Shown here in pieces: positions 2,918 through 41,674 of a stretch of DNA of 44,362 bases. Numbering within the stretch: the stretch's first letter is position 1; every line of letters begins with the position of its first letter. A program made the position numbers and the translations under genes. Source of the stretch: a phage; sequence record PZ445525.1, one strand, 5' to 3'. Under the pieces are notes generated by a model. It did no database searches. It was not told the origin of the DNA and saw only the letters and a program-made list of their open reading frames with translations.

Positions 2918-4004
2918 TCAATATTTGGCGGATCGAATGATTCGCCGTCACATCTTCACCCAGCGCTTGAGCAATGATCAGGCGCGGAGGGTGCTGGCTA
3001 TGTGGGAGAAGTTCCGGCCCGCTTTGCTGGGCAAGTTGACCGAGTTACTTGATGGCAAAAAGTCCATGAGCAACAAGGCACTTACCACACTGTTAACGCA
3101 ACTCGACAAGACCGTCAAAACGGAACTGCGCGCCGAGTTTAAAGTGCTGGCGGAGAGCCTTCAGGAGTTCGCCGACACCGAGGCTGATTATCTCGCCGAT
3201 ACATTAACGGCAGCGATCCAGCCCGCGGTCGCCGTACCGGCTGTCGAGGTGGTGGGTGTTGTGACCGGCGCGCAGATCGCAGCGACTGCAATGAAAAACC
3301 CGTTCCAGGGAAACACCATGATGCAATGGCCCGATTCACTTTCCGAGTGGACCCGGACGCAGATCGGCAATCAGGTGCGCGCTGGATTCATCCAGGGCAA
3401 GCCTACTATTGAAATTATTGCGGACGTGAGGCGCGCGCTCGGCGGTCGTAGTGCGCAAGCAATCTCAAGCGTTGTTAAGTCCGCGGTCAACCACTATGCG
3501 GCGACCGCCCGCGAATTAATGGTAAAAGCCAATGACGATATTCTCGAAGGTCGCCAATGGTTGGCTACATTGGACACGCATACTTCTCCCATGTGCCAGC
3601 TACGCGATCGCCTGTTTTATCCAGTTGGTGTTACTCCCGACACAAAAGGGAAGCGCGGCGGGAAAGTGGTGGCGGGGTCACAATATGGCGCGGGTCCTGG
3701 CAAGCTGCATTATTGCTGCCGTTCGACGGAGACGTGGAAAGTCAAAGGTATGGAGGATTGGCCCAGTGGTAAGCGTCCGGCACTGAAGGCTGATGCGGGC
3801 AGATTGCTGAGTGAGCAGGTCGACGCGCAGACTGATTTCTTCTCATGGGTGCAGCGCCAGCCTCGCCATATTCTGGAGGAGTTATATGGGGTGCAGCGCG
3901 CAGATCAGATTATGCGAGGCGTGAAAGTGCCGAAGATGTTCACCGATACTGGCGAATTAATGACTATTGCACAGCTTAAAAACCGGGGGTTATGGCGTGA
4001 TTAA
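2901..4004 (+). CDS. head morphogenesis protein (Mu F / SPP1 gp7-like minor head protein)
   Basis: 367-aa ORF overlapping portal stop; position after portal; W-x-T-L-D-T-H-T-S-P-M-C region recalls the phage head morphogenesis domain (recollection, unsearched). Confidence 0.55.
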   Translation: MAKTINQYLADRMIRRHIFTQRLSNDQARRVLAMWEKFRPALLGKLTELLDGKKSMSNKALTTLLTQLDKTVKTELRAEFKVLAESLQEFADTEADYLADTLTAAIQPAVAVPAVEVVGVVTGAQIAATAMKNPFQGNTMMQWPDSLSEWTRTQIGNQVRAGFIQGKPTIEIIADVRRALGGRSAQAISSVVKSAVNHYAATARELMVKANDDILEGRQWLATLDTHTSPMCQLRDRLFYPVGVTPDTKGKRGGKVVAGSQYGAGPGKLHYCCRSTETWKVKGMEDWPSGKRPALKADAGRLLSEQVDAQTDFFSWVQRQPRHILEELYGVQRADQIMRGVKVPKMFTDTGELMTIAQLKNRGLWRD

Positions 4005-4305
4005 GTATGCCGCGATCGGATTGGTTATAGGTCTGGCGGTTGGATTCTGGCAGGGTGATTCCTACCGCACTGGCGTTGAGGCGAGAGCGGCGCAAGAAGC
4101 GCAAGCGAAAGCCCAACGGCAGCAAACTAAGGCTGTCGAGGGGTCTGTGAAGGCAGAACAGGCCCGCGACGTGGAATACAGGACCATCACGAAAGAGGTT
4201 GTAAAATATGTTACGCGTCCTAACCGTCCTGATTGTAGTTTTGATGCTGAGCGCGTGCGGATCAAGCAAAGTGCCATCGATGCCGCTAACCGAGTCGGTC
4301 TATAG
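3997..4305 (+). CDS. i-spanin (Rz-like); start uncertain (ATG 3967 or GTG 3997)
   Basis: N-terminal TM helix IKYAAIGLVIGLAVGFW then Ala/Gln/Lys-rich helical periplasmic part; contains an embedded out-of-frame lipoprotein ORF. Confidence 0.55.
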   Translation: MIKYAAIGLVIGLAVGFWQGDSYRTGVEARAAQEAQAKAQRQQTKAVEGSVKAEQARDVEYRTITKEVVKYVTRPNRPDCSFDAERVRIKQSAIDAANRVGL

Positions 4306-4438
4306 ACCGCCTTGCACCTTTGAGAATGCCTCGTCAGATCCAGACGAAGACTTGCTGGTTGATGTTAAGAATATGGAGTGTGGGGCGAAGCTGAGGGCGC
4401 AAGTGCTGGAGTTGCAGAAAATAATTCGGGGGCCGTGA
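4208..4438 (+). CDS. o-spanin (Rz1-like outer membrane lipoprotein)
   Basis: 76-aa ORF starting inside the Rz-like gene in another frame and extending past it; signal peptide with lipobox L-S-A-C; Pro-rich mature region; RBS agagg. Confidence 0.6.
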   Translation: MLRVLTVLIVVLMLSACGSSKVPSMPLTESVYRPPCTFENASSDPDEDLLVDVKNMECGAKLRAQVLELQKIIRGP

Positions 4439-5245: not shown

Positions 5246-5274
5246 AATATATGCAACCAATACGAGGATTGCAA
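5246..5274 (-). promoter_or_regulatory. candidate sigma70-type promoter for the reverse moron
   Basis: -35 TTGCAA (5269-5274), 17-nt spacer containing ATTGGTTGCA, -10 TATATT (5246-5251), second ATTGGTTGCA copy at the predicted start site. Confidence 0.4.
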
Positions 5275-5281
5275 GCGAATT

Positions 5282-5310
5282 TTGCGATTATTTTTATCGC
5301 TGATAATATT
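5282..5310 (+). promoter_or_regulatory. candidate promoter for scaffold/capsid genes
   Basis: TTGCGA, 17-nt spacer, TAATAT upstream of scaffold RBS aggggga; weak prediction. Confidence 0.3.
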
Positions 5311-5364
5311 AGAAGCGTGAAGTCGAGCGGGTGGCCTGCTCTGCCACAATCCCAGGGGGATAGC

Positions 5365-6069
5365 ATGAATCTTACTAAAGCAGAATATGACGCGTTGCCG
5401 GAAGGTATGAAGGCGCTTTTTGTTGCCGATGGCGACGGGTATAAATCAACATTCATGACCGCCGAAGAGGTACAGGCGGAAATCAAGGGTCTGAAAGACA
5501 ATAACGCTAAGCTGGTGAGCGAGAAGAAAGCAGAAGCTGAACGCCGCGCCGAAGCTGAGCGCCTTGCGAAAGAGAAAGAGGAAGCCGCCGCGCGCAAAAA
5601 TGGCGACCTCGAAGCGATCGACAAGTCCTGGAAGGATAAGTTTGCGAAACACGAAGCAGATACATCGGGAAAAATCGAAGCCTACCGCAAGCAGATCCAC
5701 GATCTCACCATCGGCAGCGCTGCCAAAGACCTGGCATCAAAGCTGTTCGGTAAGAATGCCGGAATCATGCAACGTCACGTTATGGATCGCCTGACGCTGG
5801 AAGACGGCGAAGACGGCAGCTTGAAAGTGCGTGTATTGCAGGATGGCAAACCGTCCGCTCTTACTATGGAAGAACTTGAAAAAGAGTTCCGTAATAACGC
5901 CGATTTTGCATCCGTCCTGGCTGGCACGCCAGCCGGTGGCGCGCCTAGCAAACCGACGCAGGTTGTCGAAGATGTGAAGTCGAAAATCACTATGGGCCAC
6001 AGCTTCGGTATCACTGACCTTACGAAACAGGCAGGTGAAATCATCGCTAAGATGGGCGACGACGAGTAA
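5365..6069 (+). CDS. capsid scaffold protein
   Basis: 234-aa Lys/Glu/Ala-rich helical protein (AEAERRAEAERLAKEKEEAAARK) directly upstream of the major capsid gene; RBS aggggga; the six-frame ORF start at 5014 is rejected because that part is antisense to the moron. Confidence 0.6.
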   Translation: MNLTKAEYDALPEGMKALFVADGDGYKSTFMTAEEVQAEIKGLKDNNAKLVSEKKAEAERRAEAERLAKEKEEAAARKNGDLEAIDKSWKDKFAKHEADTSGKIEAYRKQIHDLTIGSAAKDLASKLFGKNAGIMQRHVMDRLTLEDGEDGSLKVRVLQDGKPSALTMEELEKEFRNNADFASVLAGTPAGGAPSKPTQVVEDVKSKITMGHSFGITDLTKQAGEIIAKMGDDE

Positions 6070-6166
6070 GCAGATTGCCCGCGAAAGCGGGCAATTTTGC
6101 GAGCGCATAAATCTAAGGTAACATTAACGTCACTGGGCGAATGCTCACAACTCAAAGGATTTCGAT

Positions 6167-7267
6167 ATGTCTTTAACAGTGTTCCAGCGTAAACTCGTCA
6201 CCGCGGTTACGCAAATGATCCCCGACAACCTGAACGTGTTCAACGCTGCCGCTAATGGTGCTGTTGTTCTCGGCACAGGTGAAGTGCTGAAGGATGTTGT
6301 AGAGAAAATGTCCGTAGGCTTGATCGCCAACCTCGTTACCGACCGTAACGCCTATGCCCCTGTCGGTACTCCGGCAACCGCTAAAGTGCTGGCGCGTATG
6401 CTGACCAACTCGGTTAACCTTTCCGCGAAAGTTGGTCCGGTAGCAATCACGAAGGCCATGATGGCTAAAATCGAAACCAACGTTAACAGCGTTGCGGCTG
6501 AGATTGCGGCGCAGGCTACTCAAGCGATTATGCTGCACTACCTGAAAGCTGGTATCGGCGCAAGTAAAGCGGCGATCGAAAGCAACGCAGCGGCAAAATA
6601 CACCCAACCGGCGCGCGTTGACGGCGTTGGTGGTCGTACCTTCCCGACCCTGGCAGACTTCCCGCTGGCGGCTTCTAAGTTCGGCGATCAGGCGTCTTTG
6701 ATTAAGTCGTGGTTTATGGACGGCGTTACCTGGGCAAACTTCATTGCGTACCAGGCACTCCCTTCCGCTGAACAGGTATTCGCAATTGGCGATCTCCAGG
6801 TAATGGGTGATGGCCTGGGCCGTCGCTTCATTATCTCCGATGCCGCTGCCGATGCTATGGGCGCTGGCACAATGCTGGGTCTGGTCCCTGGCGCGGTTGC
6901 AGTTACCACCAACGGCCTCGATATGCTGGCGCAGGAAAAAGGCGGTAACGAGAACATCGAGCGCTGGTGGCAGGGCGAGTTCGACTTCAACGTGGCTGTT
7001 AAAGGCTATCGTCTGAAGGCGTCCGCTCGTACCCCGATCGAAGGCGTCCGCTCGTTCAAGCTGGACGATATCACCACTTCCGCTAACTGGGAACTGGACC
7101 AGGGCCAGGTAGACAACGCACCGGCAACCGTGCAGGATGTTGGCGCTGTGGGTGATGGCGATACTAAAGGTCGTCGTAAGACCCAGGCCGCACAGGCAGT
7201 GCCTACCCGTCACATCAAGGAAACCGCTGGCGTACTGGTTACGCTGACTGCGACCACCGCGTCTTAA
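6167..7267 (+). CDS. major capsid protein
   Basis: 366-aa ORF with RBS aaagga following the scaffold and followed by a strong terminator; Ala/Gly/Val/Thr-rich composition typical of HK97-fold capsid proteins. Confidence 0.8.
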   Translation: MSLTVFQRKLVTAVTQMIPDNLNVFNAAANGAVVLGTGEVLKDVVEKMSVGLIANLVTDRNAYAPVGTPATAKVLARMLTNSVNLSAKVGPVAITKAMMAKIETNVNSVAAEIAAQATQAIMLHYLKAGIGASKAAIESNAAAKYTQPARVDGVGGRTFPTLADFPLAASKFGDQASLIKSWFMDGVTWANFIAYQALPSAEQVFAIGDLQVMGDGLGRRFIISDAAADAMGAGTMLGLVPGAVAVTTNGLDMLAQEKGGNENIERWWQGEFDFNVAVKGYRLKASARTPIEGVRSFKLDDITTSANWELDQGQVDNAPATVQDVGAVGDGDTKGRRKTQAAQAVPTRHIKETAGVLVTLTATTAS

Positions 7268-14511: not shown

Positions 14512-15296
14512 ATAAACTATATCGCGAGGCGACGCGCTTTGATCCATCGGGCCGCGTTCGCCTGATTCACATTGACGCGCAGGACGTGGAGCCGGGCGAC
14601 GGCGCGATCGGCGCGGGCCATCACTATTTTCACTACTGCTTTATTCCGCACACTGCCGAGGATATTGCCGCCGCAGGTGGTGACGAGGACAAGCTAAAAC
14701 CTAAATCCATCTTCTTCGGCGGGCAGGAGTTCGAATTTTGGCCCTTCGATTTGTCCGGCCTCAACTTCTCCACATCAACGGCAGCAGAACCGCAGCTGAC
14801 CATTGTCGATATTGGCGGCATAATCACCCGGCTATCATTGAATCACGACCAGCTACTGGGCGCGAAGGTTGAAATAATCGACACGTTCGCGAAGTTCCTG
14901 GATAACGGGTCGGATCCAGACCCGACGCAAAAACGTGTCCAGGAGTATTACATCGACTCACAGGTCGGGCGCAATCCAGGCAAGCAAATCACCTTCGCAT
15001 TATCCTCCCCCGCGGATATGGAGGGGCAAGTAGTACCACGCCGCCAGATCATGAACATGTGCGAATGGGCGCTCAATGGGAAGTACGCCAGCGGTGACGG
15101 TTGCACATGGAACCTTGCGCAGCCCGGAATCAAATATTACGACGAGCGCGGAAACGAAGTCATCTCGATGAATATGGACCGATGCGGCGGATGCTTGTCG
15201 GACTGCTATCTTCGTTTTGGACAAGGTCTTGCGGACCCGAAAGCGGCGGTGCTGGACTTCGGCGGTTTTCCTGGATCAAAATTGATTAAGGGGTAG
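14508..15296 (+). CDS. minor tail protein (gpL-like)
   Basis: 262-aa ORF overlapping the previous stop; C-terminal Cys cluster (C-x-C ... C-x2-C-x3-C) as in Fe-S-containing lambda gpL-type proteins. Confidence 0.7.
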   Translation: MNKLYREATRFDPSGRVRLIHIDAQDVEPGDGAIGAGHHYFHYCFIPHTAEDIAAAGGDEDKLKPKSIFFGGQEFEFWPFDLSGLNFSTSTAAEPQLTIVDIGGIITRLSLNHDQLLGAKVEIIDTFAKFLDNGSDPDPTQKRVQEYYIDSQVGRNPGKQITFALSSPADMEGQVVPRRQIMNMCEWALNGKYASGDGCTWNLAQPGIKYYDERGNEVISMNMDRCGGCLSDCYLRFGQGLADPKAAVLDFGGFPGSKLIKG

Positions 15297-15298
15297 TC

Positions 15299-16039
15299 AT
15301 GCTAACGAAGAAGGTTAAACGCGATATCGCCGCACACGTTGCGGCATGTCTGCCGGAAGAAGCGTGCGGGCTGGTCGTCATGGTGGGCCGCAAACAAGTG
15401 TTTATCCCGTGCCTGAACGTCTTCGAAGACCCAACCGGCGCGCGCTCGCGAAAGGACGCGTTTACAATTAGTGATATGGCCTGGGTGGATGCCGAGGATA
15501 TGGGCGACGTTGTGCGCGTAGTCCACTCGCACCCCGGGCAGCGCGAGCTAACCCCGTCATTGGGCGACGTTAACGGGTGCAATGGTAGCGGCGTCGTCTG
15601 GTCAATTACCAATGAGTATGGCGACTTTATCGAGATCGACCCGGAAGACCCGCCGCTGGTAGGCCGCCGATTTGTTCTCGGAATTACGGATTGTTATGGC
15701 CTCGTTATGGACTGGCATAAAAAGCAGGGCGTAAATTTGCCAGACTTCCGCGTACCGTACAACTGGTGGGAGACAGGAGAAAACCTGTATATGGACAATT
15801 GGTATGGCGCGGGCTTCCGGGAGTGTGAGGAGAATACGCCGGGGGCGATGGTTATCATGCAGATTAGCGCGCCAGTGCCTAATCATGCCGGAATCTACCT
15901 TCCGGGCAACCAACTACTACACCATATCTACGGCAGCCTGTCGAGCGTCGTTCCCTTCCGGGCGGGATTTTTCCGGGACAATGTGGTTAAATGGGTTCGT
16001 CATAAAGACCTACCGGGGAATATCACAGAATGGCAATGA
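15299..16039 (+). CDS. tail assembly protein (gpK-like; MPN/JAMM plus NlpC/P60-like)
   Basis: JAMM motif HSHPGQ...S..D; downstream Cys (DCYG) and His (HAG) consistent with an NlpC/P60 region. Confidence 0.75.
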   Translation: MLTKKVKRDIAAHVAACLPEEACGLVVMVGRKQVFIPCLNVFEDPTGARSRKDAFTISDMAWVDAEDMGDVVRVVHSHPGQRELTPSLGDVNGCNGSGVVWSITNEYGDFIEIDPEDPPLVGRRFVLGITDCYGLVMDWHKKQGVNLPDFRVPYNWWETGENLYMDNWYGAGFRECEENTPGAMVIMQISAPVPNHAGIYLPGNQLLHHIYGSLSSVVPFRAGFFRDNVVKWVRHKDLPGNITEWQ

Positions 16040-16647
16040 CCACATTTAAATTGTACGGCGTATTAGGACGCCGATTCGGTAAAGTGCACAAGCTGGACTG
16101 TTTCACACCGGGCGAGGGTATCACCGGCCTGTGCGTGAAGTTGCCTGGCTTACAGGACTTTCTAATGTCGGCCCACCTGGACAACATGATGTTTAAAGTG
16201 CGCAAGGGCAATCACACTTTGACCGGCTACGACGAGTTAGGTGAGTTCCACGGCGACCGCGTAGTGACCATCGCGCCGGTTATGACTGGTGCAAAAAGCG
16301 GACTGGGCCAATTGCTGGCGGGTGTCGCGATCGTGGTGGCGTCGTTCTATACCGGCGGGCTTGCTACCGCCGCTTTCGGGGCTTCGGCGGCAACCGCTGC
16401 CGCTATAGGTACGGCGACGTTTTCGTTCGGCATGTCGCTTGCGATGGGCGGTGCTATGCAATTGCTGTCGCCACAACCGAAAGGATTGCAGACAAGGCAG
16501 GACGTGGATAACAAGGCGTCGTACGCGTTCGGCGGACCAGTAAACACCACCGCGCAAGGTACGGCACTTGGTGTATTATGGGGCGAGCGTGAGATCGGCG
16601 GCGCTATTATTTCAGCCGGAATCGTAACCGAGGATTTGAACGAATGA
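16030..16647 (+). CDS. tail assembly protein (gpI-like)
   Basis: 205-aa ORF overlapping the K-like stop; Gly/Ala-rich hydrophobic C-terminal half; conserved position before the J-like gene. Confidence 0.6.
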   Translation: MAMTTFKLYGVLGRRFGKVHKLDCFTPGEGITGLCVKLPGLQDFLMSAHLDNMMFKVRKGNHTLTGYDELGEFHGDRVVTIAPVMTGAKSGLGQLLAGVAIVVASFYTGGLATAAFGASAATAAAIGTATFSFGMSLAMGGAMQLLSPQPKGLQTRQDVDNKASYAFGGPVNTTAQGTALGVLWGEREIGGAIISAGIVTEDLNE

Positions 16648-19600
16648 CGATTATCTACGACGTCACTGGGCATAAGGGTGGCGGTGGTAAACAGCACACC
16701 CCGCAGGAAACGCCTGACAGCCTGCATTCTCTGGCTAAAATCCGCATCCTCCTTGCACTTGGTGAAGGGGAATTCGAAAGTATTACCAGCGCCAGCGAAT
16801 TGCGGCAGCGTGTATATCTGGACGGCACGCCGATCCAGAACGCCGACATGTCGGAAAACTTCCCCGGCGCGCGCGTGGAGTTCCGCCCTGGCACACAGCA
16901 CCAGGATGTGATCCACGGATTTTCAGCGGTAGAAAGCGAGCAATCCGTCGGTGTAAAACTGGAAAACGGCACGCCGTGGGTCCGCCAGATTAACGACACC
17001 AGTCTTGACGCCGTGCGCATTCGTGTCGGTATTCCGGCCCTGTACACCAACGAAGATAACGGCGATTTGGTTGGCGGGCGCATCGACTACAAAATCGTTG
17101 TGTACACCGACAACGCTGACCCGCGCGAGTTCAACTTCGCTGCCGTTGGTAAAACAATGTCGCTGTATGAGCGCGACCACCGCATCGAGCTACCGTCGAA
17201 CGTGAATACCGGCTGGCGCGTGGAGGTGCACCGCACGACGGCAGACTCCACATCGGCAAAAGTGGTTAACGATATCCAGGTGCAATCAATCACTGAGATT
17301 ATCGACGCCCGTCTGCGCTACCCGCTAACCGCGCTGTTGTTCGTGGAGTTCGACGCTAAGGCGTTCCAGAACATCCCGCGCGTGTCCATCAAGTGCAAAG
17401 GTCGCAAAGTGCTGGTCCCGAACAACTACGACCCGGTCAATCATACCTATTCTGGCGACTGGGACGGGACGTTTAAACGCGCATGGACTGATAACCCTGC
17501 GTGGCACTGGTATGATATTTGTATTACTGAGCGCTTCGGCCTCGGTCGGAGGATCAAGCCGCAAATGCTAAACCGTTACGCGCTCTACCAGATTGCGCAG
17601 CGCTGCGACCAGTTGGTCAGCGACGGAAACGGCGGACGGGAAATCCGCTTTAAGAATGATATGTACATCCAGTCGCAGACCGACGCATGGACCGTGCTTA
17701 AGGATTTAGCAGCCATCTTTGCTGGTATGACCTGGTGGGGAAACCAGATGTTGAATATCGTCAGTGACCAGCCGGTCGCAGCGGTATCGCACACTATCAC
17801 CAACGCCTCGGTAATTGATGGTCGATTCGACTACGCATCTGGGAGCCAGAAAACTCGCTATTCCACGTTCGCGGTAGCATACGGCAACCCGAAGAACCAC
17901 TACGAAGACGCCATCGCAACGGGCCAGCGTGTCGAACTGGTGCGCCGCCATAAAATCAACCGCCTTGATATTACGGCGATCGGCTGTACGCGTGAATCAG
18001 AAGCGCAACGCCGCGGTCACTGGGCGCTAATCTCCAACCAGCTTGACCAGCAAGTTAGCTTTAGGGTTGGCATGGAGGGACTTTTCTTTATTCCGGGTAG
18101 CGTAGTCGCGATCGCCGATACAAACATTTCTGGCGGCTTCGAGACACGCGGCGGTCGCCTGTTGCCAGATCCTGGCACGCGGACGGTGCTGAACACAGAC
18201 AGCGAAATCACGTTCCGCCCTGGCGATAAATTCCTGGTACGCACCGATAGCGGTAATGTGGAGACTCGCGAGATCGCCAGCGTCAACGGCAACAAGGTTA
18301 CGCTAAAAACCGCACTGGACGCAGACCCGATTCCTGATCAGCCGTTTTGCGTTGATGGCGATGATATCCAGTTGCAGAAGTTCCGCATCACCGACCTGGA
18401 ATATGACGACTCTACCAGCACTTTTTCAGTGCGCGGGGTCGAGTACAACGATAGCAAATATGATGCCGTTGATAATGGCGCTCGCCTTGATCCTGGTATT
18501 TTCACGCAAGTGCCAGACGGCGTAATGAAGGGGCCGGAGTCCGTGACCATCACCCCGTCGCAGATTTCATCGCAAGGCCAGCTAATCACCAACGTGGATA
18601 TTGTTTTCCCGCCGGTGAAGGATGCCGTTGTTTATGAAATCCAGTGGCGGCGTACCAGCTTGCAGAATATGGCGATCCAGTGGGGTAACGACTGGGTGAA
18701 CATCCCACGCACGGCATCGAACGGCGCGCACATCCCTAACGTGTTCTCCGGTAACTACCAGGCACGCGTCCGCGCGATCGGTATGGGCGAGATTTCGTCC
18801 CCGTGGGTGTCGTCCGCTATCACGCCGGTGGACGGTCGTCTCGGCGGGCTTAACGCGCCTATCATCACCAACGCGATTTCGGGCCTCCACCAAATTTTGT
18901 GGAAGTGGAACCACAACAACGCCGCGACGGATATCTCATACACCGAGCTTGAAGTGCGCAAGACTGGTGAAACGGAATGGAAGTTCTTAACCAACGTCCC
19001 ATATCCTGGGTCGGAGTATGCGCAAACGTCGCTGGAGTTCGGCATTTACCAGCAGTTGCGCGCCCGTGTGGCTGATAAAATCGGCAACCTGTCGGACTGG
19101 TCCGCCCCGTTTGAAGGCCAGGTGAGTGACAAAGTTGACGAGTACATGAAGGGGCTTGATGACGCGTTCTTGACTTCCGAGGATGGTAAACACTTCCAGG
19201 AAGCAATCGACACCATTCCGCAAGGCATTTACGAATCAATGCTAACGGACGCCCAGCAGCTATTCAACGCCCGCACCGAGTATAAAGGGATTTATGCAGA
19301 AATAACGGTGGCATATAACGTGGCGGCGGACGCCCACAAGGCGGTCGCTCAACTGGAGACGTTGATTGGCACGCGCCTTGACGACGCGGAAGCGGCGATC
19401 CACACGTTGCAGACTGCGCAAAGCACGCACGAACAAGCGTTCGCCCAGTACCAACAAACTGTTGCCGCTAAGTTCGGGGAACAGGAAGCTGCCATCCAGC
19501 AGGTACAAACGGCAACGGCAGACGTAGCGGGCGCACTGGCGGAGTATAAGACCCAGGTTGCGGCGCAGTTTGGTCAGCAGTCCGCAGCTATTGAGCAGAA

Positions 19601-20066
19601 GATGACGTCTTCGTTTAACCATGCTGGCGGCAGTGCCACATACAGCCTTAAGGCTGGCGTGACGTATAACGGGACTTACTACGATGCCGGTATGCAGCTT
19701 TCCGTCGTGGCGGAAGGTGGCGCGGTTAAATCCCGCATCGCGTTCAAGGCGGACCAGTTCTACATCATGCACCCATCTAACGGGTCGCTTTCGTCCGCGT
19801 TTATTGTAGACGGCGGGGCGGTGTACATCGACACGGCACGCATCAAGGACGCGACTATCAACTTCGCGCAGATCACGGACACGCTGCAATCTAATAACTA
19901 CGACGGCAGCACGCGAGGCTGGCGCTTAGGGAAAGATGGGACGTTTATCAACCTGGGAACCGGTAGCGGTGGCGGGGCGATGAAAATGACGAATGACACA
20001 ATCAGCGTCAAGGATTCTAACGGAGTTTTGCGGGTTCAGATTGGTAAAATCACGGGGGGTTGGTGA
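16644..20066 (+). CDS. tail tip / host specificity protein (gpJ-like)
   Basis: 1140-aa ORF last in the M-L-K-I-J series; C-terminal Ala/Gln-rich repeats. Confidence 0.8.
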   Translation: MTIIYDVTGHKGGGGKQHTPQETPDSLHSLAKIRILLALGEGEFESITSASELRQRVYLDGTPIQNADMSENFPGARVEFRPGTQHQDVIHGFSAVESEQSVGVKLENGTPWVRQINDTSLDAVRIRVGIPALYTNEDNGDLVGGRIDYKIVVYTDNADPREFNFAAVGKTMSLYERDHRIELPSNVNTGWRVEVHRTTADSTSAKVVNDIQVQSITEIIDARLRYPLTALLFVEFDAKAFQNIPRVSIKCKGRKVLVPNNYDPVNHTYSGDWDGTFKRAWTDNPAWHWYDICITERFGLGRRIKPQMLNRYALYQIAQRCDQLVSDGNGGREIRFKNDMYIQSQTDAWTVLKDLAAIFAGMTWWGNQMLNIVSDQPVAAVSHTITNASVIDGRFDYASGSQKTRYSTFAVAYGNPKNHYEDAIATGQRVELVRRHKINRLDITAIGCTRESEAQRRGHWALISNQLDQQVSFRVGMEGLFFIPGSVVAIADTNISGGFETRGGRLLPDPGTRTVLNTDSEITFRPGDKFLVRTDSGNVETREIASVNGNKVTLKTALDADPIPDQPFCVDGDDIQLQKFRITDLEYDDSTSTFSVRGVEYNDSKYDAVDNGARLDPGIFTQVPDGVMKGPESVTITPSQISSQGQLITNVDIVFPPVKDAVVYEIQWRRTSLQNMAIQWGNDWVNIPRTASNGAHIPNVFSGNYQARVRAIGMGEISSPWVSSAITPVDGRLGGLNAPIITNAISGLHQILWKWNHNNAATDISYTELEVRKTGETEWKFLTNVPYPGSEYAQTSLEFGIYQQLRARVADKIGNLSDWSAPFEGQVSDKVDEYMKGLDDAFLTSEDGKHFQEAIDTIPQGIYESMLTDAQQLFNARTEYKGIYAEITVAYNVAADAHKAVAQLETLIGTRLDDAEAAIHTLQTAQSTHEQAFAQYQQTVAAKFGEQEAAIQQVQTATADVAGALAEYKTQVAAQFGQQSAAIEQKMTSSFNHAGGSATYSLKAGVTYNGTYYDAGMQLSVVAEGGAVKSRIAFKADQFYIMHPSNGSLSSAFIVDGGAVYIDTARIKDATINFAQITDTLQSNNYDGSTRGWRLGKDGTFINLGTGSGGGAMKMTNDTISVKDSNGVLRVQIGKITGGW

Positions 20067-20070
20067 TATA

Positions 20071-20084
20071 GGGGCTTCGGCCCC
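20071..20084. terminator. bidirectional hairpin between convergent J-like gene and minus-strand gene
   Basis: ggggcttcggcccc (GNRA-like loop) between stops at 20066 (+) and 20090 (-); no strong T-run. Confidence 0.45.
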
Positions 20085-20089
20085 TTCTA

Positions 20090-20704
20090 TCAATCATATT
20101 TAGCCGCATCTATTACGAGTATGGATGGCGAATAATAAACGCCGAGTGGCCCTGGTGTGTGGGCTACTTGCTTAGATATCGAATAAATGCTTGTTCCGGA
20201 TGCGCCGGATTGTGATTCATAAATAGCGTGCCCACCAATCTGAGGGGTGGGGACCGAGTTTATTGCCGTTTGTTGTGGCGATACGGCACATGTATACCCC
20301 AGATTAACATCAAAAGACAGACCATTTATCGGTATTTGGTGGGCCTCCAGCGGCAGCATTTTACCGTGGTACACCATATCCCCCGCAGAATTATAGAATG
20401 CGATCCCGTAGTCTCCTGGCGGGGTAACCATATCACTAAAAGCATATACTCTAATCCATCCTGGATTGTCGGTCTTGTCTAGCCGTAGCGCATGATAACC
20501 ACCATTATTTATGTGAGTGAATGCGGTGTACGCACGCCCGCCCATCCTCACAAAGAAAAAGCACACGCGATCGAATGGTATTGGCGTTGTAAAAACAGAA
20601 CCGCTATATACCCCCATATCACCGCGACTTATTAAATTAACAGGCGTAAAATCCGGGCTTAACCAAATGGACCCATCCGGCTTTGTGATCTGCATTCCGT
20701 ACAT
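20090..20704 (-). CDS. hypothetical protein (possibly C-terminal part of a split gene)
   Basis: 204-aa Gly/Tyr/Ser-rich ORF; its ATG lies 1 nt after the stop of the upstream ORF, separated by a G5 tract. Confidence 0.45.
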   Translation of the reverse strand: MYGMQITKPDGSIWLSPDFTPVNLISRGDMGVYSGSVFTTPIPFDRVCFFFVRMGGRAYTAFTHINNGGYHALRLDKTDNPGWIRVYAFSDMVTPPGDYGIAFYNSAGDMVYHGKMLPLEAHQIPINGLSFDVNLGYTCAVSPQQTAINSVPTPQIGGHAIYESQSGASGTSIYSISKQVAHTPGPLGVYYSPSILVIDAAKYD

Positions 20705-20705
20705 G

Positions 20706-20999
20706 TCACCCCCAATACGTATATATAAATCTTGATTCGCCAGCGTTAAAGCCGCTCCAGGAGACAGTGTTGTCGCTTACGGATATTGATGGCGCACCCC
20801 AAGATGTGCCGTTCCATGTATGCGTACCAACGTAACCCGCCTTTAAACTTTTCCCCGGCGGACGGTTGTGATACGTCTTGCTCCCGGATGGTTGTGTGAA
20901 TTTGTCGAGGAAAAAAACCGGCGTTAGCAGACCGGTTACATCCCTGCCGTGCTCGTCATAAATCGCGTACCCATAGTTACTCACTTTTACACTCCACAA
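20706..20999 (-). CDS. hypothetical protein (possibly N-terminal part of a split gene)
   Basis: 97-aa ORF ending TGG-GGG-TGA immediately before the next ATG; removal of one G would fuse the two ORFs. Confidence 0.4.
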   Translation of the reverse strand: MWSVKVSNYGYAIYDEHGRDVTGLLTPVFFLDKFTQPSGSKTYHNRPPGKSLKAGYVGTHTWNGTSWGAPSISVSDNTVSWSGFNAGESRFIYTYWG

Positions 21000-21246
21000 T
21001 TTCGAATTTATCTTCGCGTTGCCATCTGTGAACGAAAGTTACAAATTTCTGTGATGGGGCTACTCGGTATTGTTTTTCGCCAAATCGGTTTTCACGCACC
21101 GCGTTTAGTTTAACAGGGTAGCTATCGTTTACGGGGAATGTTTTAACCACATATTGGCCTGTGCAATTAATGGCCTTGTAGTTGCCGTCTGGTGGCGCTG
21201 AGCAACCCGCCAACAGAACCGCACAAATCATAATTAAAGTTTTCAT
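20977..21246 (-). CDS. small lipoprotein, candidate Cor/Llp-like superinfection exclusion protein
   Basis: 89-aa ORF from ATG 21246 with strong RBS aggag; signal peptide MKTLIMICAVLLAGC with lipobox L-A-G-C; located beside tail fiber/host-range genes. Confidence 0.5.
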   Translation of the reverse strand: MKTLIMICAVLLAGCSAPPDGNYKAINCTGQYVVKTFPVNDSYPVKLNAVRENRFGEKQYRVAPSQKFVTFVHRWQREDKFEIVECKSE

Positions 21247-21326
21247 GGTATCATCTCCTATATTTGGTTGAGTTTTAGTATTACACCGCTCGATCAAGAA
21301 TGCAACCAATTTATGAGGATTTAGCT

Positions 21327-22955
21327 ATGGCAGCGGGTACGCTCTCCGTAACGAACAATAGCAAGGCGGTAGTAGGGGTTGGCACAACGTTTACCGCGTT
21401 CAAGGCTGGCGACTTCTTATCACTGGTGGTAGGACAAGTCCCCTACACCGTGGCAATCGCGTCCATTGAAAGCGACACTGCGCTTACCCTGGTGCTGCCG
21501 TTCGACGGCCCAACGGCAACCGGCCTGGCATGGGATGGCGTAGCGCGCGATACCATGTCGCTGGCAACTATGGGCGTAACGGTCCAGGCACAGAAAGCAT
21601 TACGCTTGATGATCGCGGACGAAAACAACTGGCGTGCAATCTTCGGCGACGCTGAAGAAATCACCGTAACGTTACCTAACGGGCAGGTTATGCAGGGGAT
21701 GTCATGGGGCTATCTGTCGCAGTTGATGAAACAGATCGACCCCGTTGAAATGCGCGACCTGCAACAACAAGCCGCCGCATCGGAAGCCGCCGCGCAAGGA
21801 TTTCGTAATGAGGCCGAAGGCTTCAAGACCGAGACGGCAGGCATTCGCGACGCCACCAATCAGATTAAGGCGGATACGCAGGCGATCCACGACGCCACTA
21901 ATACTGTCAAGACGCAGACTGACCAGATTAAGACTGATACGCAGGCCATCAAGGACCAGACGAACCAGATCAAGACTGACACCGGCGTTATAAGGGATGA
22001 AGCCAATACCGCGAAGACGGACGCGCAAGCCGCCCGTGATGCCGCGCAGGGATACCGGAACGAAGCCGAACAATTCAAGAATGAGATCGACCCGTCGAAA
22101 TTGCTGGCAAAGGCCAACAACCTGAGCGACGTTGCCGACCCAACGGCAGCGCGGGGCCACTTAGGCTTGGGGTCCGTGGCGACGCTAAATGTTGGTACGT
22201 CTGGTGATAATGTGCCAAAACTAAACGGCGCTAACACATGGTCACAGGCTCAAACCTTCAGCACGCCTTTAGCGATCGAGTCTGGGGGCACGGGCGTAAA
22301 CACGCGTGAGGCACTGTGGCCTGTCGTACGACCTCTCGACGTGTTAGGTAACGCAGGAAGACATTTTGGGATACCTGACGGTGTCACCAGAAACCACATC
22401 TGGCTGTGGAACCAGGCGGATACCCCGGACGCAGGTTTTGCTAACTTTATTGAAGGTGGCTGGTTTGACAGCGCATGGCGCATGGGAGGTATTCGTAGTG
22501 GAAATGTCCAATTATCACATGTGCAGCTTACCGTTGATAGCGACCCGGGTCCGGCTGCTGACTTCAAATTTTTCCCTGACGGTACTGCGGTAACTACAAA
22601 CTGGAGTTCAACATCCGACCCGCGCGTCAAATCTCTGATTGAGGTTATACCAGACCCACTTTATTTGATGCGAGGTATCCGTGGTTATTCTTGGTACTAT
22701 GAACATACTGGTAGTAAGGGCTTTGGGTTCCTGTCTTCCGAGGTGAAGGTTAACTTCAGCGGGGCGGTTAAGACATTTGGGGATGCTACGCTACCCGATG
22801 GTACAGTAGTACATGATGTGGAGGGTGTGGACACATCGGGAGTGTCCGCCGCACTCCATCACGAGGCCATACTGGCACTGATGGATAAAATGGAGGATAT
22901 GCAGAAAGAACTGGAGGAACTGAAAGCCGCAGTAGCGGCCCAGGCTAAAGCATAA
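21327..22955 (+). CDS. tail fiber protein with C-terminal intramolecular chaperone (peptidase S74-like) domain
   Basis: 542-aa ORF with RBS gaggat; 11-residue repeats (QIKTDTQAIKD...) encoded by ~33-bp tandem repeats; C-terminal region with S-D-P-R-V-K motif and coiled-coil tail typical of auto-cleaving chaperone domains. Confidence 0.65.
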   Translation: MAAGTLSVTNNSKAVVGVGTTFTAFKAGDFLSLVVGQVPYTVAIASIESDTALTLVLPFDGPTATGLAWDGVARDTMSLATMGVTVQAQKALRLMIADENNWRAIFGDAEEITVTLPNGQVMQGMSWGYLSQLMKQIDPVEMRDLQQQAAASEAAAQGFRNEAEGFKTETAGIRDATNQIKADTQAIHDATNTVKTQTDQIKTDTQAIKDQTNQIKTDTGVIRDEANTAKTDAQAARDAAQGYRNEAEQFKNEIDPSKLLAKANNLSDVADPTAARGHLGLGSVATLNVGTSGDNVPKLNGANTWSQAQTFSTPLAIESGGTGVNTREALWPVVRPLDVLGNAGRHFGIPDGVTRNHIWLWNQADTPDAGFANFIEGGWFDSAWRMGGIRSGNVQLSHVQLTVDSDPGPAADFKFFPDGTAVTTNWSSTSDPRVKSLIEVIPDPLYLMRGIRGYSWYYEHTGSKGFGFLSSEVKVNFSGAVKTFGDATLPDGTVVHDVEGVDTSGVSAALHHEAILALMDKMEDMQKELEELKAAVAAQAKA

Positions 22956-22961
22956 CGAGAA

Positions 22962-22983
22962 GGGGCCGTATGGCCCCTTTTTT
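22962..22983. terminator. bidirectional intrinsic terminator
   Basis: hairpin ggggccgtatggcccc followed by TTTTTT, between convergent stops at 22955 (+) and 22982 (-). Confidence 0.65.
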
Positions 22984-23557
22984 AGTTTGAGTTTTCCCAA
23001 TCCATTTTGCGCCGCACCAGCGGGCTTTCGTAGTATTCCTTTCCTTCCACTTCCACTAAGGGCCAGTCATTAACAATCACGTATGGCTCTGCGATATCCT
23101 CAATCACGCCGTGCGCGCTTTGCGGCCCTAACGACACACCCACCAGGATAACACCGGCAACGCGACGTGACAGATACTCGCGAGCGCAACGCGCCTCTAC
23201 CAGCCCGCGACGGATGCCGCTGGTGGCCTTAACCTCGTAGGTCCATACGGCATCGATTACATGCTCGCGGAAGTCTGGACCGGACTTAACCTTGCGCTTG
23301 CCGACCATGATGATATCGCCGCGGTCAATGGTATTGGCGCTAAACAGGCCGGTACGCATAAGCAAGCCTTGCGGGATGCAACTACGCCCGCCCGCCTGCC
23401 CTTCAAGATACATGCCCGCAAACATTTCGCCCAGCACACCGACCAGTCGGCTTTGCTTGCACGCGTCGGACTTTAAGCGCCACTGGTCAAACTCGATGCT
23501 TGCTATCATTGCCGCCAGGTGGAATTGTTTACCAGATATTTCATATTCGCCGTACAT
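22982..23557 (-). CDS. hypothetical protein (possible PD-(D/E)xK-type motif)
   Basis: 191-aa ORF; segment D-A-V-W-T-Y-E-V-K resembles a D...ExK nuclease motif; weak. Confidence 0.45.
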   Translation of the reverse strand: MYGEYEISGKQFHLAAMIASIEFDQWRLKSDACKQSRLVGVLGEMFAGMYLEGQAGGRSCIPQGLLMRTGLFSANTIDRGDIIMVGKRKVKSGPDFREHVIDAVWTYEVKATSGIRRGLVEARCAREYLSRRVAGVILVGVSLGPQSAHGVIEDIAEPYVIVNDWPLVEVEGKEYYESPLVRRKMDWENSN

Positions 23558-40663: not shown

Positions 40664-40954
40664 ATGGATAAGATAAACGAGTGGCTATTTGCCCTTGCAT
40701 GTCTGGCTGGCGGCTTCGTAGGCGCACGCATTCATGGCGAGGCTACGAAAGGGCCGCTAAACTTCGTTTTATATATCGTTGTTGGCTTCCTGTGTGCCAT
40801 ATTTGGTGCGCCAGCTATCGCCGAGTGGGCGGGCTTATCAGGCGAGCGCACTGTCGCCGGTTTGGGCTTCGTAACTGCAATCTTCTGGATGCCAATAGCC
40901 GCCCGGATCAGGGAGACTATTGAGTCGTTCCGACTTCCGGGGGGTGCAAAATGA
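40664..40954 (+). CDS. holin candidate
   Basis: 96-aa protein with three predicted TM segments, two genes upstream of the lysozyme. Confidence 0.5.
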   Translation: MDKINEWLFALACLAGGFVGARIHGEATKGPLNFVLYIVVGFLCAIFGAPAIAEWAGLSGERTVAGLGFVTAIFWMPIAARIRETIESFRLPGGAK

Positions 40955-41196
40955 TTATCTCCGTCCTGTTGTTTGTTATCATAGGGGCTTCGTCCCTGTT
41001 TAACGTGTATGCGCCGTCCGTTCAGGATGGCATTTTCGGTCGGGTGTTATATCTGCTTACGGCGATGGTCTGCGTTATCGGACTGTTGCAAACAGGAGAC
41101 GTATCTGACACCACCTGGACCGCGCTAATCTGGCTGTTTGCATTGCGCACGCTGCGTAATGCTGTTTTGAATGGGGTAAAACATGCGATTCAGTGA
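40951..41196 (+). CDS. membrane protein (holin/antiholin candidate)
   Basis: 81-aa protein with three hydrophobic segments overlapping both neighbours. Confidence 0.45.
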   Translation: MIISVLLFVIIGASSLFNVYAPSVQDGIFGRVLYLLTAMVCVIGLLQTGDVSDTTWTALIWLFALRTLRNAVLNGVKHAIQ

Positions 41197-41674
41197 CAAC
41201 GGTCTACGATTTACGGCAGCATGGGAGACTTTCAGCCCAGTGCCGTATTTCGCGACTAAGAAAGAGCAGGCCCGCGGCCTGTACACCTGGGGCTATGGTC
41301 ACACCGGAACTAACCCGCCTCGAAGCATTACCCGAGCGGAAGCGCTGGAGCTACTCAAGCGCGATGTGGCGTATGCGGAAGATTGGGTGAACAAATACGC
41401 ACATCCGAGCATTAACCAGGCGCAATTCGACGCGCTGGTGGATCTGGTAATCAATGCAGGTCCGGGTCCGATCGTACCGGATAACATCGCGAACGATTTC
41501 GATGATGCGGTGCGCCTGGGTGACTGGGCGAAGGTCCGTGCTACGCTGCCGCAGTTCCGCAAGCAAGGCGGGGAAGTGCTTAAGGGTCTGGTCCGTCGGG
41601 CAATCGGCAGGCAAGCGCTATTCGATGGTAAGCAGTGGGACGTCGCCGAGAAGATCGGACGTAACGCAGCATAA
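41183..41674 (+). CDS. endolysin, phage lysozyme (GH24-like)
   Basis: A-A-W-E-T-F-S-P-V-P-Y ... T-W-G-Y-G-H-T and I-N-Q-A-Q-F-D-A-L-V-D-L-V-I-N-A-G match the Glu/Asp/Thr lysozyme pattern. Confidence 0.8.
   Translation: MRFSDNGLRFTAAWETFSPVPYFATKKEQARGLYTWGYGHTGTNPPRSITRAEALELLKRDVAYAEDWVNKYAHPSINQAQFDALVDLVINAGPGPIVPDNIANDFDDAVRLGDWAKVRATLPQFRKQGGEVLKGLVRRAIGRQALFDGKQWDVAEKIGRNAA

Follow-up and report, generated by a model that had tools for sequence, protein, structure and literature searches.

Cor is the classical exclusion factor acting on FhuA, the receptor that phage T1 uses, and the vitamin B12 transporter BtuB is, like FhuA, a TonB-dependent transporter. The jamming of a receptor by a small periplasmic lipoprotein has been shown structurally for the FhuA-Llp pair (PMC9586334), and for the Llp of BF23 and DT57C, experiments have demonstrated a block of BtuB-dependent phages (PMC4728585). 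In LptD-type loci, the exclusion factor is Rtp45, whose structure with LptDE has been solved (PMC12685063). In small siphophages, the hypervariable locus located 3' of gpJ encodes receptor-binding proteins together with their cognate superinfection-exclusion proteins, and the alleles present at this locus follow the terminal receptor, being FhuA, BtuB, LptD or YncD (PMC8594841; bioRxiv 10.64898/2026.04.02.716166). LptD has been predicted to be the receptor of Bas84 (bioRxiv 10.64898/2026.04.02.716166), and the authors of the 2026 paper on KanT1 noted Cor-like proteins in BtuB-targeting Tempevirinae.

The kind of protein that we analyse here is already known: the literature predicts exclusion proteins at this locus, and some GenBank records name family members 'Cor'. 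Judging from sequence comparisons, what is added is that the label 'Cor' rests on the signal peptide, that the junction of the cassette lies at the boundary between the signal peptide and the mature protein, that a rare BtuB-type cassette is present in a Dhillonvirus, and that stand-alone homologues occur on conjugative plasmids. We consider it likely that the outer-membrane lipoprotein predicted at this locus is a receptor-blocking superinfection-exclusion ('lytic conversion') factor, the receptor most likely being BtuB.

Results

Genomic context

The window, i.e., the whole stretch of phage DNA analysed (44,362 nucleotides; record PZ445525.1), is essentially the complete genome of a Dhillonvirus-type E. 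coli siphophage. Its first gene is that of the large terminase (1-1383), and it appears to cover the entire genome of the phage. Over positions 20000-23000, its closest relatives are PTXU06, Zar3M and BEK2-2, with about 91-94% nucleotide identity. The genes of the locus are the following:

16644-20066, plus strand: J-like central tail fibre or tail tip protein, 1140 aa (open reading frame and annotated homologues)
20090-20704, minus strand: gene 3, 204 aa, ATG start at 20704 (phrog_425, E=6.9e-48)
20706-20984, minus strand: gene 2, 92 aa, GTG start at 20984 (phrog_557, E=1.3e-18)
20977-21246, minus strand: lipoprotein gene (open reading frame and sequence, dN/dS, family alignment, AF2 model)
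21247-21326: divergent intergenic region, common to the compared Dhillonviruses of every cassette type
21300 or 21327 to 22955, plus strand: lateral tail fibre gene (phrog_1980, E=2e-119; BEK2-2 annotation)

The lipoprotein gene is the first of three translationally coupled minus-strand genes that form an operon. Gene 2, which overlaps the lipoprotein open reading frame by 8 nt, is preceded by a GGAG sequence of its own at 20995-20992, and its GTG start agrees with both the BEK2-2 annotation and the alignment. It is a homologue of T1 gp32, which also belongs to phrog_557, and of N15 gp22; gene 3 is a homologue of T1 gp31 and N15 gp23 (phrog_425). By homology, the product of gene 2 is a probable receptor-binding accessory protein and that of gene 3 a probable BtuB-specific receptor-binding protein. 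Receptor-binding proteins are thought to attach to the J-like protein, the final 250 aa of which are 93% identical to those of the J protein of Gluttony. As for the lateral tail fibre gene, its true start is probably the ATG at 21327 and not the listed ATG at 21300, because the alignment to the PHROG does not start before residue 10 and because the BEK2-2 annotation has an 80-bp divergent intergenic region.

A possible weak promoter of the operon could be read by eye in the divergent intergenic region of the window (21247-21326):

21305-21300 and 21285-21277, minus strand: TTGCAT, a 17-nt spacer and TGt-AATACT

A scan with consensus promoters gave nothing above chance and did not flag this candidate. 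A terminator-like hairpin followed by a run of seven T residues is located inside gene 2 on the minus strand (20916-20937), 40-60 nt past the stop codon of the lipoprotein gene. It is present in BEK2-2 and absent from KarlJaspers and swan01, its folding is no better than that of shuffled sequences (z=-0.9), and it is probably a chance feature. The idea that this hairpin (20937-20916) acts as an attenuator that splits early expression of the lipoprotein from late expression of the receptor-binding genes was therefore dropped.

Two side observations concern the receptor-binding proteins. First, those of the FhuA type and the BtuB type look distantly related (BLASTP E=0.001; window 20090-20984 versus T1 14608-15602); a 2026 preprint terms the receptor-specific families 'unrelated'. 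Second, Stx-converting phages and the Nonagvirus JenP1 have homologues that are 43-44% identical to the 204-aa protein and thus much closer than T1 gp31 (25%), and the protein is also matched in SSU5 and in Klebsiella phages.

The lipoprotein gene

A first-pass annotation made from the letters alone had placed an 89-aa open reading frame with a classic lipoprotein signal peptide and a strong ribosome-binding site at 20977-21246, on the strand opposite to the tail-tip/J and tail fibre genes that surround it; the operon headed by this gene had escaped it. The features that it did give were all borne out: the open reading frame lies exactly there on the minus strand, running from an ATG (21246-21244) to a TAA (20979-20977), it is flanked by the plus-strand J-like and lateral tail fibre genes, and the signals could be read directly from the sequence:

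21205-21246, minus strand: signal peptide MKTLIMICAVLLAG
21204-21202, minus strand: codon of the lipobox cysteine, Cys15, directly after the signal peptide
21255-21259, minus strand: Shine-Dalgarno sequence AGGAG, 8 nt 5' of the ATG

In the N-terminus, MKTLIMICAVLLAGC, a basic n-region (K2) is followed by a hydrophobic core and the lipobox L-A-G-C; the latter, MKTLIMICAVLL-A-G-C15, matches the pattern [LVI][ASTVI][GAS]C. A lipobox is also present in all nine sequences of the family alignment (A2) and in swan01, its placement being ambiguous for one homologue (P0028) in the MAFFT alignment. The mature lipoprotein, which has 75 aa, a mass of ~8.7 kDa and a pI of 8.9, would start with Cys15 in lipidated form. 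The residue at position +2 is Ser (CSAPP), not Asp, and the homologues have Ser or Ala. According to the Lol sorting rule, lipoproteins without Asp at +2 go to the outer membrane, and the predicted location of the protein is hence the outer membrane. A longer version of 110 aa, with a TTG start, was discarded, as it has neither a ribosome-binding site nor a counterpart among the homologues.

The open reading frame is a real gene and not a chance one, because its mature part matched 86 phage records when searched on its own, because its dN/dS values are 0.10 against BEK2-2 and 0.12 against KarlJaspers, and because 13 residues, C28 and C86 included, are invariant in an alignment of ten diverse members. 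The gene is thus under strong purifying selection (dN/dS about 0.1). A word-indexed protein search returned only five close clusters, and an exhaustive HMMER search with the mature part retrieved three more true relatives and one spurious match (P0027); the latter is a 728-aa low-complexity repeat protein that matches query residues 34-62 nine times, and it was rejected. Matches in Proteus phage P59 and in 3H10_20 were left out, as they are weak and have another genomic context. Pfam, NCBIfam and PADLOC gave nothing useful for the lipoprotein, the only matches, to TraV and TrbK, being at the level of the signal peptide, and a sequence search of the PDB gave noise only.

A small phage lipoprotein might also be a lysis protein of the o-spanin or u-spanin-like kind, and the homologue of Providencia phage PSTCR4 does match an Rz-like spanin PHROG very weakly (E=0.02), through its signal peptide only (residues 1-27). 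The window, however, has separate holin, endolysin and Rz/Rz1-like genes elsewhere:

3997-4435: Rz/Rz1-like spanin genes, among the head genes and far from the holin-endolysin cluster
40664-41193: holins
41183-41671: endolysin

Moreover, the lipoprotein lacks a C-terminal transmembrane segment, its sequence is not rich in proline, and its gene does not sit within an Rz gene but goes, by its position, with the receptor cassette and not with the lysis cassette. We regard a role in lysis as extremely improbable.

Relationship to Cor and Llp

The first-pass annotation had further read the protein as Cor/Llp-like, a reading that the computed evidence as a whole supports, and had proposed a profile comparison with these families. 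The full-length protein matched phrog_1119 ('Cor') with E=1.7e-6; this match was lost when the mature part alone was searched, which hit only the uncharacterised phrog_27799 (1.9e-4). The match to phrog_1119 was accordingly rejected as evidence, since it is carried by the signal peptide. In line with this, the BLASTP alignment with the Cor of Gluttony consists essentially of the identical signal peptide, BLASTP gave no match to the Cor of T1, and the match to phrog_4281, which includes the Bas84 lipoprotein, covers residues 2-22 only, i.e., the signal peptide (E=0.091). The motif of Cor sensu stricto, LRAGYPFSF.YVSE.NF, is absent from the window lipoprotein.

The mature part by itself has a weak but consistent, above-control similarity to the BF23-type Llp and to Cor. 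In mature-only hhalign comparisons, the statistical power of which is limited by the short length of the proteins, the family reached P=0.0017 against the Llp of the BF23/DT57C type (z=4.0; one of the 250 column shuffles, i.e., 1 of 250, scored at least as high) and P=0.0095 against Cor (2 of 250 shuffles; z=3.4). The Llp of the BF23 type compared with Cor in the same way served as a control, because this Llp is a strong member of phrog_1119 (E=1e-25), and it gave P=0.0051 (2 of 250 shuffles; z=3.3); the similarity of the family to Llp and Cor is on a par with this control. BLASTP against the Llp of DT57C gave E=0.024 at ~25% identity, and the mature part of a distant member of the family (P0029) matched phrog_1119 with E=0.037. 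The alignment with Llp is collinear: both cysteines are paired, and the invariant residues R51, R54, F55, W75 and F81 meet conserved Llp residues. C28 and C86 likewise line up with the two cysteines of Cor, and this pair, like the genomic position, fits the reading. On this evidence, the family of the window lipoprotein, the BF23-type Llp and Cor appear to form a small superfamily with three branches that are equally far apart, and the mature part is likely, though not proven, to be homologous to Cor and Llp.

The Llp of BF23 and DT57C appears to be the closest relative in function and in sequence. Both proteins have precursors of ~88-89 aa, a lipobox and two conserved cysteines that bracket the mature domain, and they share the motif C-T-x..VK[TS]F..Y.[LV]K[IV]..VR..[DN]RF...W...F....C; in both cases the gene adjoins genes that set specificity for BtuB, the receptor likely being the same. 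BF23 Llp differs by a C-terminal extension past the last Cys, and its partner in T5-like phages is a large receptor-binding protein of the pb5/Hrs type, whereas the window has a gp32/gp31-like pair. In addition, the function of BF23 Llp has been demonstrated, whereas we infer that of the window lipoprotein. The candidate would be more like BF23 Llp in function than like Cor, because its likely target is BtuB and not FhuA.

With Cor (T1, phi80, N15 and HK022) the lipoprotein shares the genomic slot beside gp32/gp31-like genes 3' of J, the Cys pair, the predicted order of five strands and, among the compared Dhillonviruses, the signal peptide. The mature parts, however, have no pairwise similarity, and the window protein is 15 residues longer. 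The arrangement differs as well: cor is alone on the minus strand in T1 and in Dhillonviruses such as Gluttony, the gp32/gp31-like genes coming after J on the plus strand, whereas in the window these two genes are inverted and have the same orientation as the lipoprotein gene. Cor accompanies FhuA phages, and the cassette type of the window accompanies BtuB phages. For the Llp of T5, which acts on FhuA (8A60), the identity is 15%, the receptor is another one, and the match is indistinguishable from those to generic SH3-like barrels. Finally, the SE lipoprotein of the Rtp45/Bas18 type, which acts on LptD (cryo-EM structure 9RPS), shares position and signal peptide in Dhillonvirus, and its loci have the same layout, with the lipoprotein first, followed by a receptor-binding gene, on the minus strand; its mature sequence is unrelated, its receptor LptDE is not a TonB-dependent transporter, and its binding mode is different (PMC12685063).

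The AF2 model of the lipoprotein has a mean pLDDT of 79.6, with about 88-94 for the mature part, and is an all-beta mini-barrel with strands at 24-36, 39-52, 58-62 and 75-77, a 3-10 turn and a strand at 81-86. These elements follow one another in the same order in the model of a T1-type Cor, a comparison of two AF2 models that has to be read in the light of the earlier inaccuracy of AF2 for such lipoproteins, namely Rtp45 (PMC12685063) and Llp (PMC9586334). When the PDB was searched with Foldseek, all matches were to generic SH3/chromo-domains or to ribosomal bL19; SH3-like barrels ranked on top in the fold searches, which did not separate Llp from them. Among predicted viral structures, the best matches were lipoproteins of Providencia and Proteus phages, and the 'receptor-blocking protein' of the BtuB phage phiR2-01 was matched weakly (E=0.078).

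An exchangeable cassette joined at the signal peptide

Comparison by blastn with other Dhillonviruses delimits a cassette that contains the mature part of the lipoprotein and genes 2 and 3:

20087-21202: exchangeable host-recognition cassette (blastn breakpoints)

The right breakpoint is at 21203, inside the codon of the lipobox Cys; all megablast matches to other cassette types begin at this position (query position 1204), and from there upward the window is 86-89% identical at the nucleotide level to loci with three cassette types. The left breakpoint is at 20086 against genomes with a T1-like cassette that carries cor and at 19899 against Bas84-type genomes, the boundary of the cassette thus shifting to 19900 in the latter comparison.

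As a consequence of this junction, the same signal peptide, MKTLIMICAVLL[A/S]GC, is joined to three different mature lipoproteins among the compared Dhillonviruses: to Cor in Gluttony and Shigella phage 1b, in Bas84 and CHD2B1 to a lipoprotein that takes the place of the LptD exclusion factor, and to the mature part found in the window and BEK2-2. Because this identical signal peptide is fused at the Cys codon to all three mature proteins, and because Cor is the exclusion factor for FhuA and Rtp45 that of LptD-type loci, the three lipoproteins are interchangeable occupants of a single superinfection-exclusion slot, and they are swapped along with the receptor-binding genes.

This cassette type is rare in Dhillonvirus, being present in 5 of the 160 records retrieved in a nucleotide search with window positions 20000-23000, and it was not found when 5,426 complete E. 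coli genomes were searched at the DNA level. The linkage between the lipoprotein and the genes of receptor specificity is fixed. Six other lineages or loci have it as well, and the order of lipoprotein, ~90-aa protein and ~205-aa protein directly after a J-like gene recurs in unrelated lineages, in either orientation, examples being an uncultured phage contig and Cronobacter phage-plasmids. In Providencia phage PSTCR4, the homologue of the lipoprotein is followed by an unannotated 321-aa open reading frame (5266-6231) between the J-like and tail fibre genes, which may encode a fused receptor-binding protein, because its N-terminus resembles the 92-aa protein of the window.

That the gene order is kept across distant phages, together with the translational coupling with genes 2 and 3, would also agree with a different role, in which the lipoprotein is no exclusion factor and instead assists the co-transcribed receptor-binding proteins or their assembly, be it as a chaperone or as part of the virion; according to a speculation by the KanT1 authors, cor works together with its neighbouring genes. 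Yet tails are put together in the cytoplasm, and the Sec and Lol pathways carry a lipoprotein out of it into the envelope; nor is co-transcription required, as the gp32/gp31 genes of FhuA-type loci are on the strand opposite to cor. Moreover, a stand-alone homologue is present on conjugative plasmids without receptor-binding genes nearby. We therefore regard such an assembly role as very unlikely.

The receptor associated with the cassette

According to the BASEL supplementary table, the terminal receptor of Bas04 (FritzSarasin) and Bas06 (KarlJaspers), as determined experimentally, is BtuB. The proteins of KarlJaspers are 74% (lipoprotein), 82% (92-aa protein; bas06_0025) and 84% (204-aa protein) identical to those of the window, the corresponding values for swan01 being 53%, 71% and 62%, and the lipoprotein of FritzSarasin is ~53% identical, which about equals the match of swan01. 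As its cassette is shared with these BtuB-dependent phages, the phage of the window most likely uses BtuB.

This assignment rests on cassette homology, and a receptor-blocking lipoprotein of the same kind might instead target FhuA or another TonB-dependent transporter: PHROG and some GenBank annotators label family members 'Cor', and genes 2 and 3 are in the same PHROGs as gp32 and gp31 of T1 and hence of FhuA phages. On the other hand, both BASEL phages that have such a cassette depend on BtuB, those of the compared Dhillonviruses that carry a bona fide Cor have a different mature lipoprotein as well as different gp32/gp31 alleles, and the mature part of the window lipoprotein scores higher against the BtuB-blocking Llp than against Cor. 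A target other than BtuB is consequently considered unlikely.

The database entries that match this locus also include five 49,946-bp records labelled 'Campylobacter phage' (MG065643, MG065649, MG065657, MG065680 and MG065681), which have homologues of genes of the T1-like BtuB cassette and in which the lipoprotein is 71% identical; the 204-aa protein is likewise matched in Campylobacter-labelled records. These five look like coliphage-type genomes, and the host label is doubtful.

Discussion

We favour BtuB-directed exclusion because the protein has the signals of a lipoprotein, because its gene occupies the position of those for Cor, Rtp45-type lipoproteins and Llp and shares, among the compared Dhillonviruses, the signal peptide of Cor, because its cassette is of the type found in BtuB-dependent phages, and because of the weak profile similarity to Llp and Cor, the order of strands and the Cys pair. 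Several points count against this interpretation. At the sequence level, the mature part resembles Cor and Llp weakly, the fold searches were topped by generic barrels, and AF2 has been inaccurate for Llp and Rtp45. In addition, the lipoprotein gene is co-transcribed with structural genes that are presumably late, whereas llp of T5 is an early gene, and the promoter scan gave no convincing candidate.

If the protein acts as a BtuB-blocking exclusion factor, its precursor would be exported, lipidated on Cys15, cleaved and, having Ser at +2, delivered by the Lol system to the outer membrane, in whose inner leaflet it would be anchored. Its 74-residue beta-domain, clamped by a putative C28-C86 disulfide, would then bind to the periplasmic face of BtuB. 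This binding would disable the extracellular site allosterically or sterically, as it does in the Llp-FhuA case, and would lock BtuB in a state in which its surface loops could no longer be bound by the receptor-binding proteins encoded by the two downstream genes. As a result, the infected cell would be refractory to secondary infection by the phage itself and by other BtuB-dependent phages, and progeny would not be lost on envelope debris.

If verified, this would place a BtuB-specific exclusion factor of T1-like and Dhillonvirus siphophages beside Cor (FhuA) and Rtp45 (LptD), and it would mean that each receptor cassette brings its own receptor-jamming lipoprotein. It could then be used to predict cross-exclusion among therapeutic BtuB phages, as a small protein that shuts BtuB from the periplasm, and as an annotation marker with which receptor specificity can be called from a genome sequence. 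The breakpoint at the signal peptide would permit cassettes to be swapped without disturbing the signals for expression and export, which would be useful for host-range engineering.

A broader and much more tentative idea, which we consider doubtful, is that Cor, the BF23-type Llp and the family of the window lipoprotein derive from one ancient disulfide-clamped mini-barrel that has been retargeted repeatedly to TonB-dependent transporters, with the signal peptide as the recombination arm; the copies on plasmids would then be a receptor-masking defence against phages and possibly colicins.

As to these plasmid copies, the stand-alone homologue (P0029) is 34% identical to the window lipoprotein and has the same Cys pair and the motif NA[VM]R..RFG. 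Copies of this type are present on conjugative plasmids of ~80-86 kb with MOBF/MPF_F systems in Enterobacter, Citrobacter and E. coli, in which they lie between hha and traG and have no receptor-binding genes in their vicinity, for instance at 4001-4264 of pECL_B (NC_014108), whose homologue is WP_013087353, and at 6001-6264 of L013.
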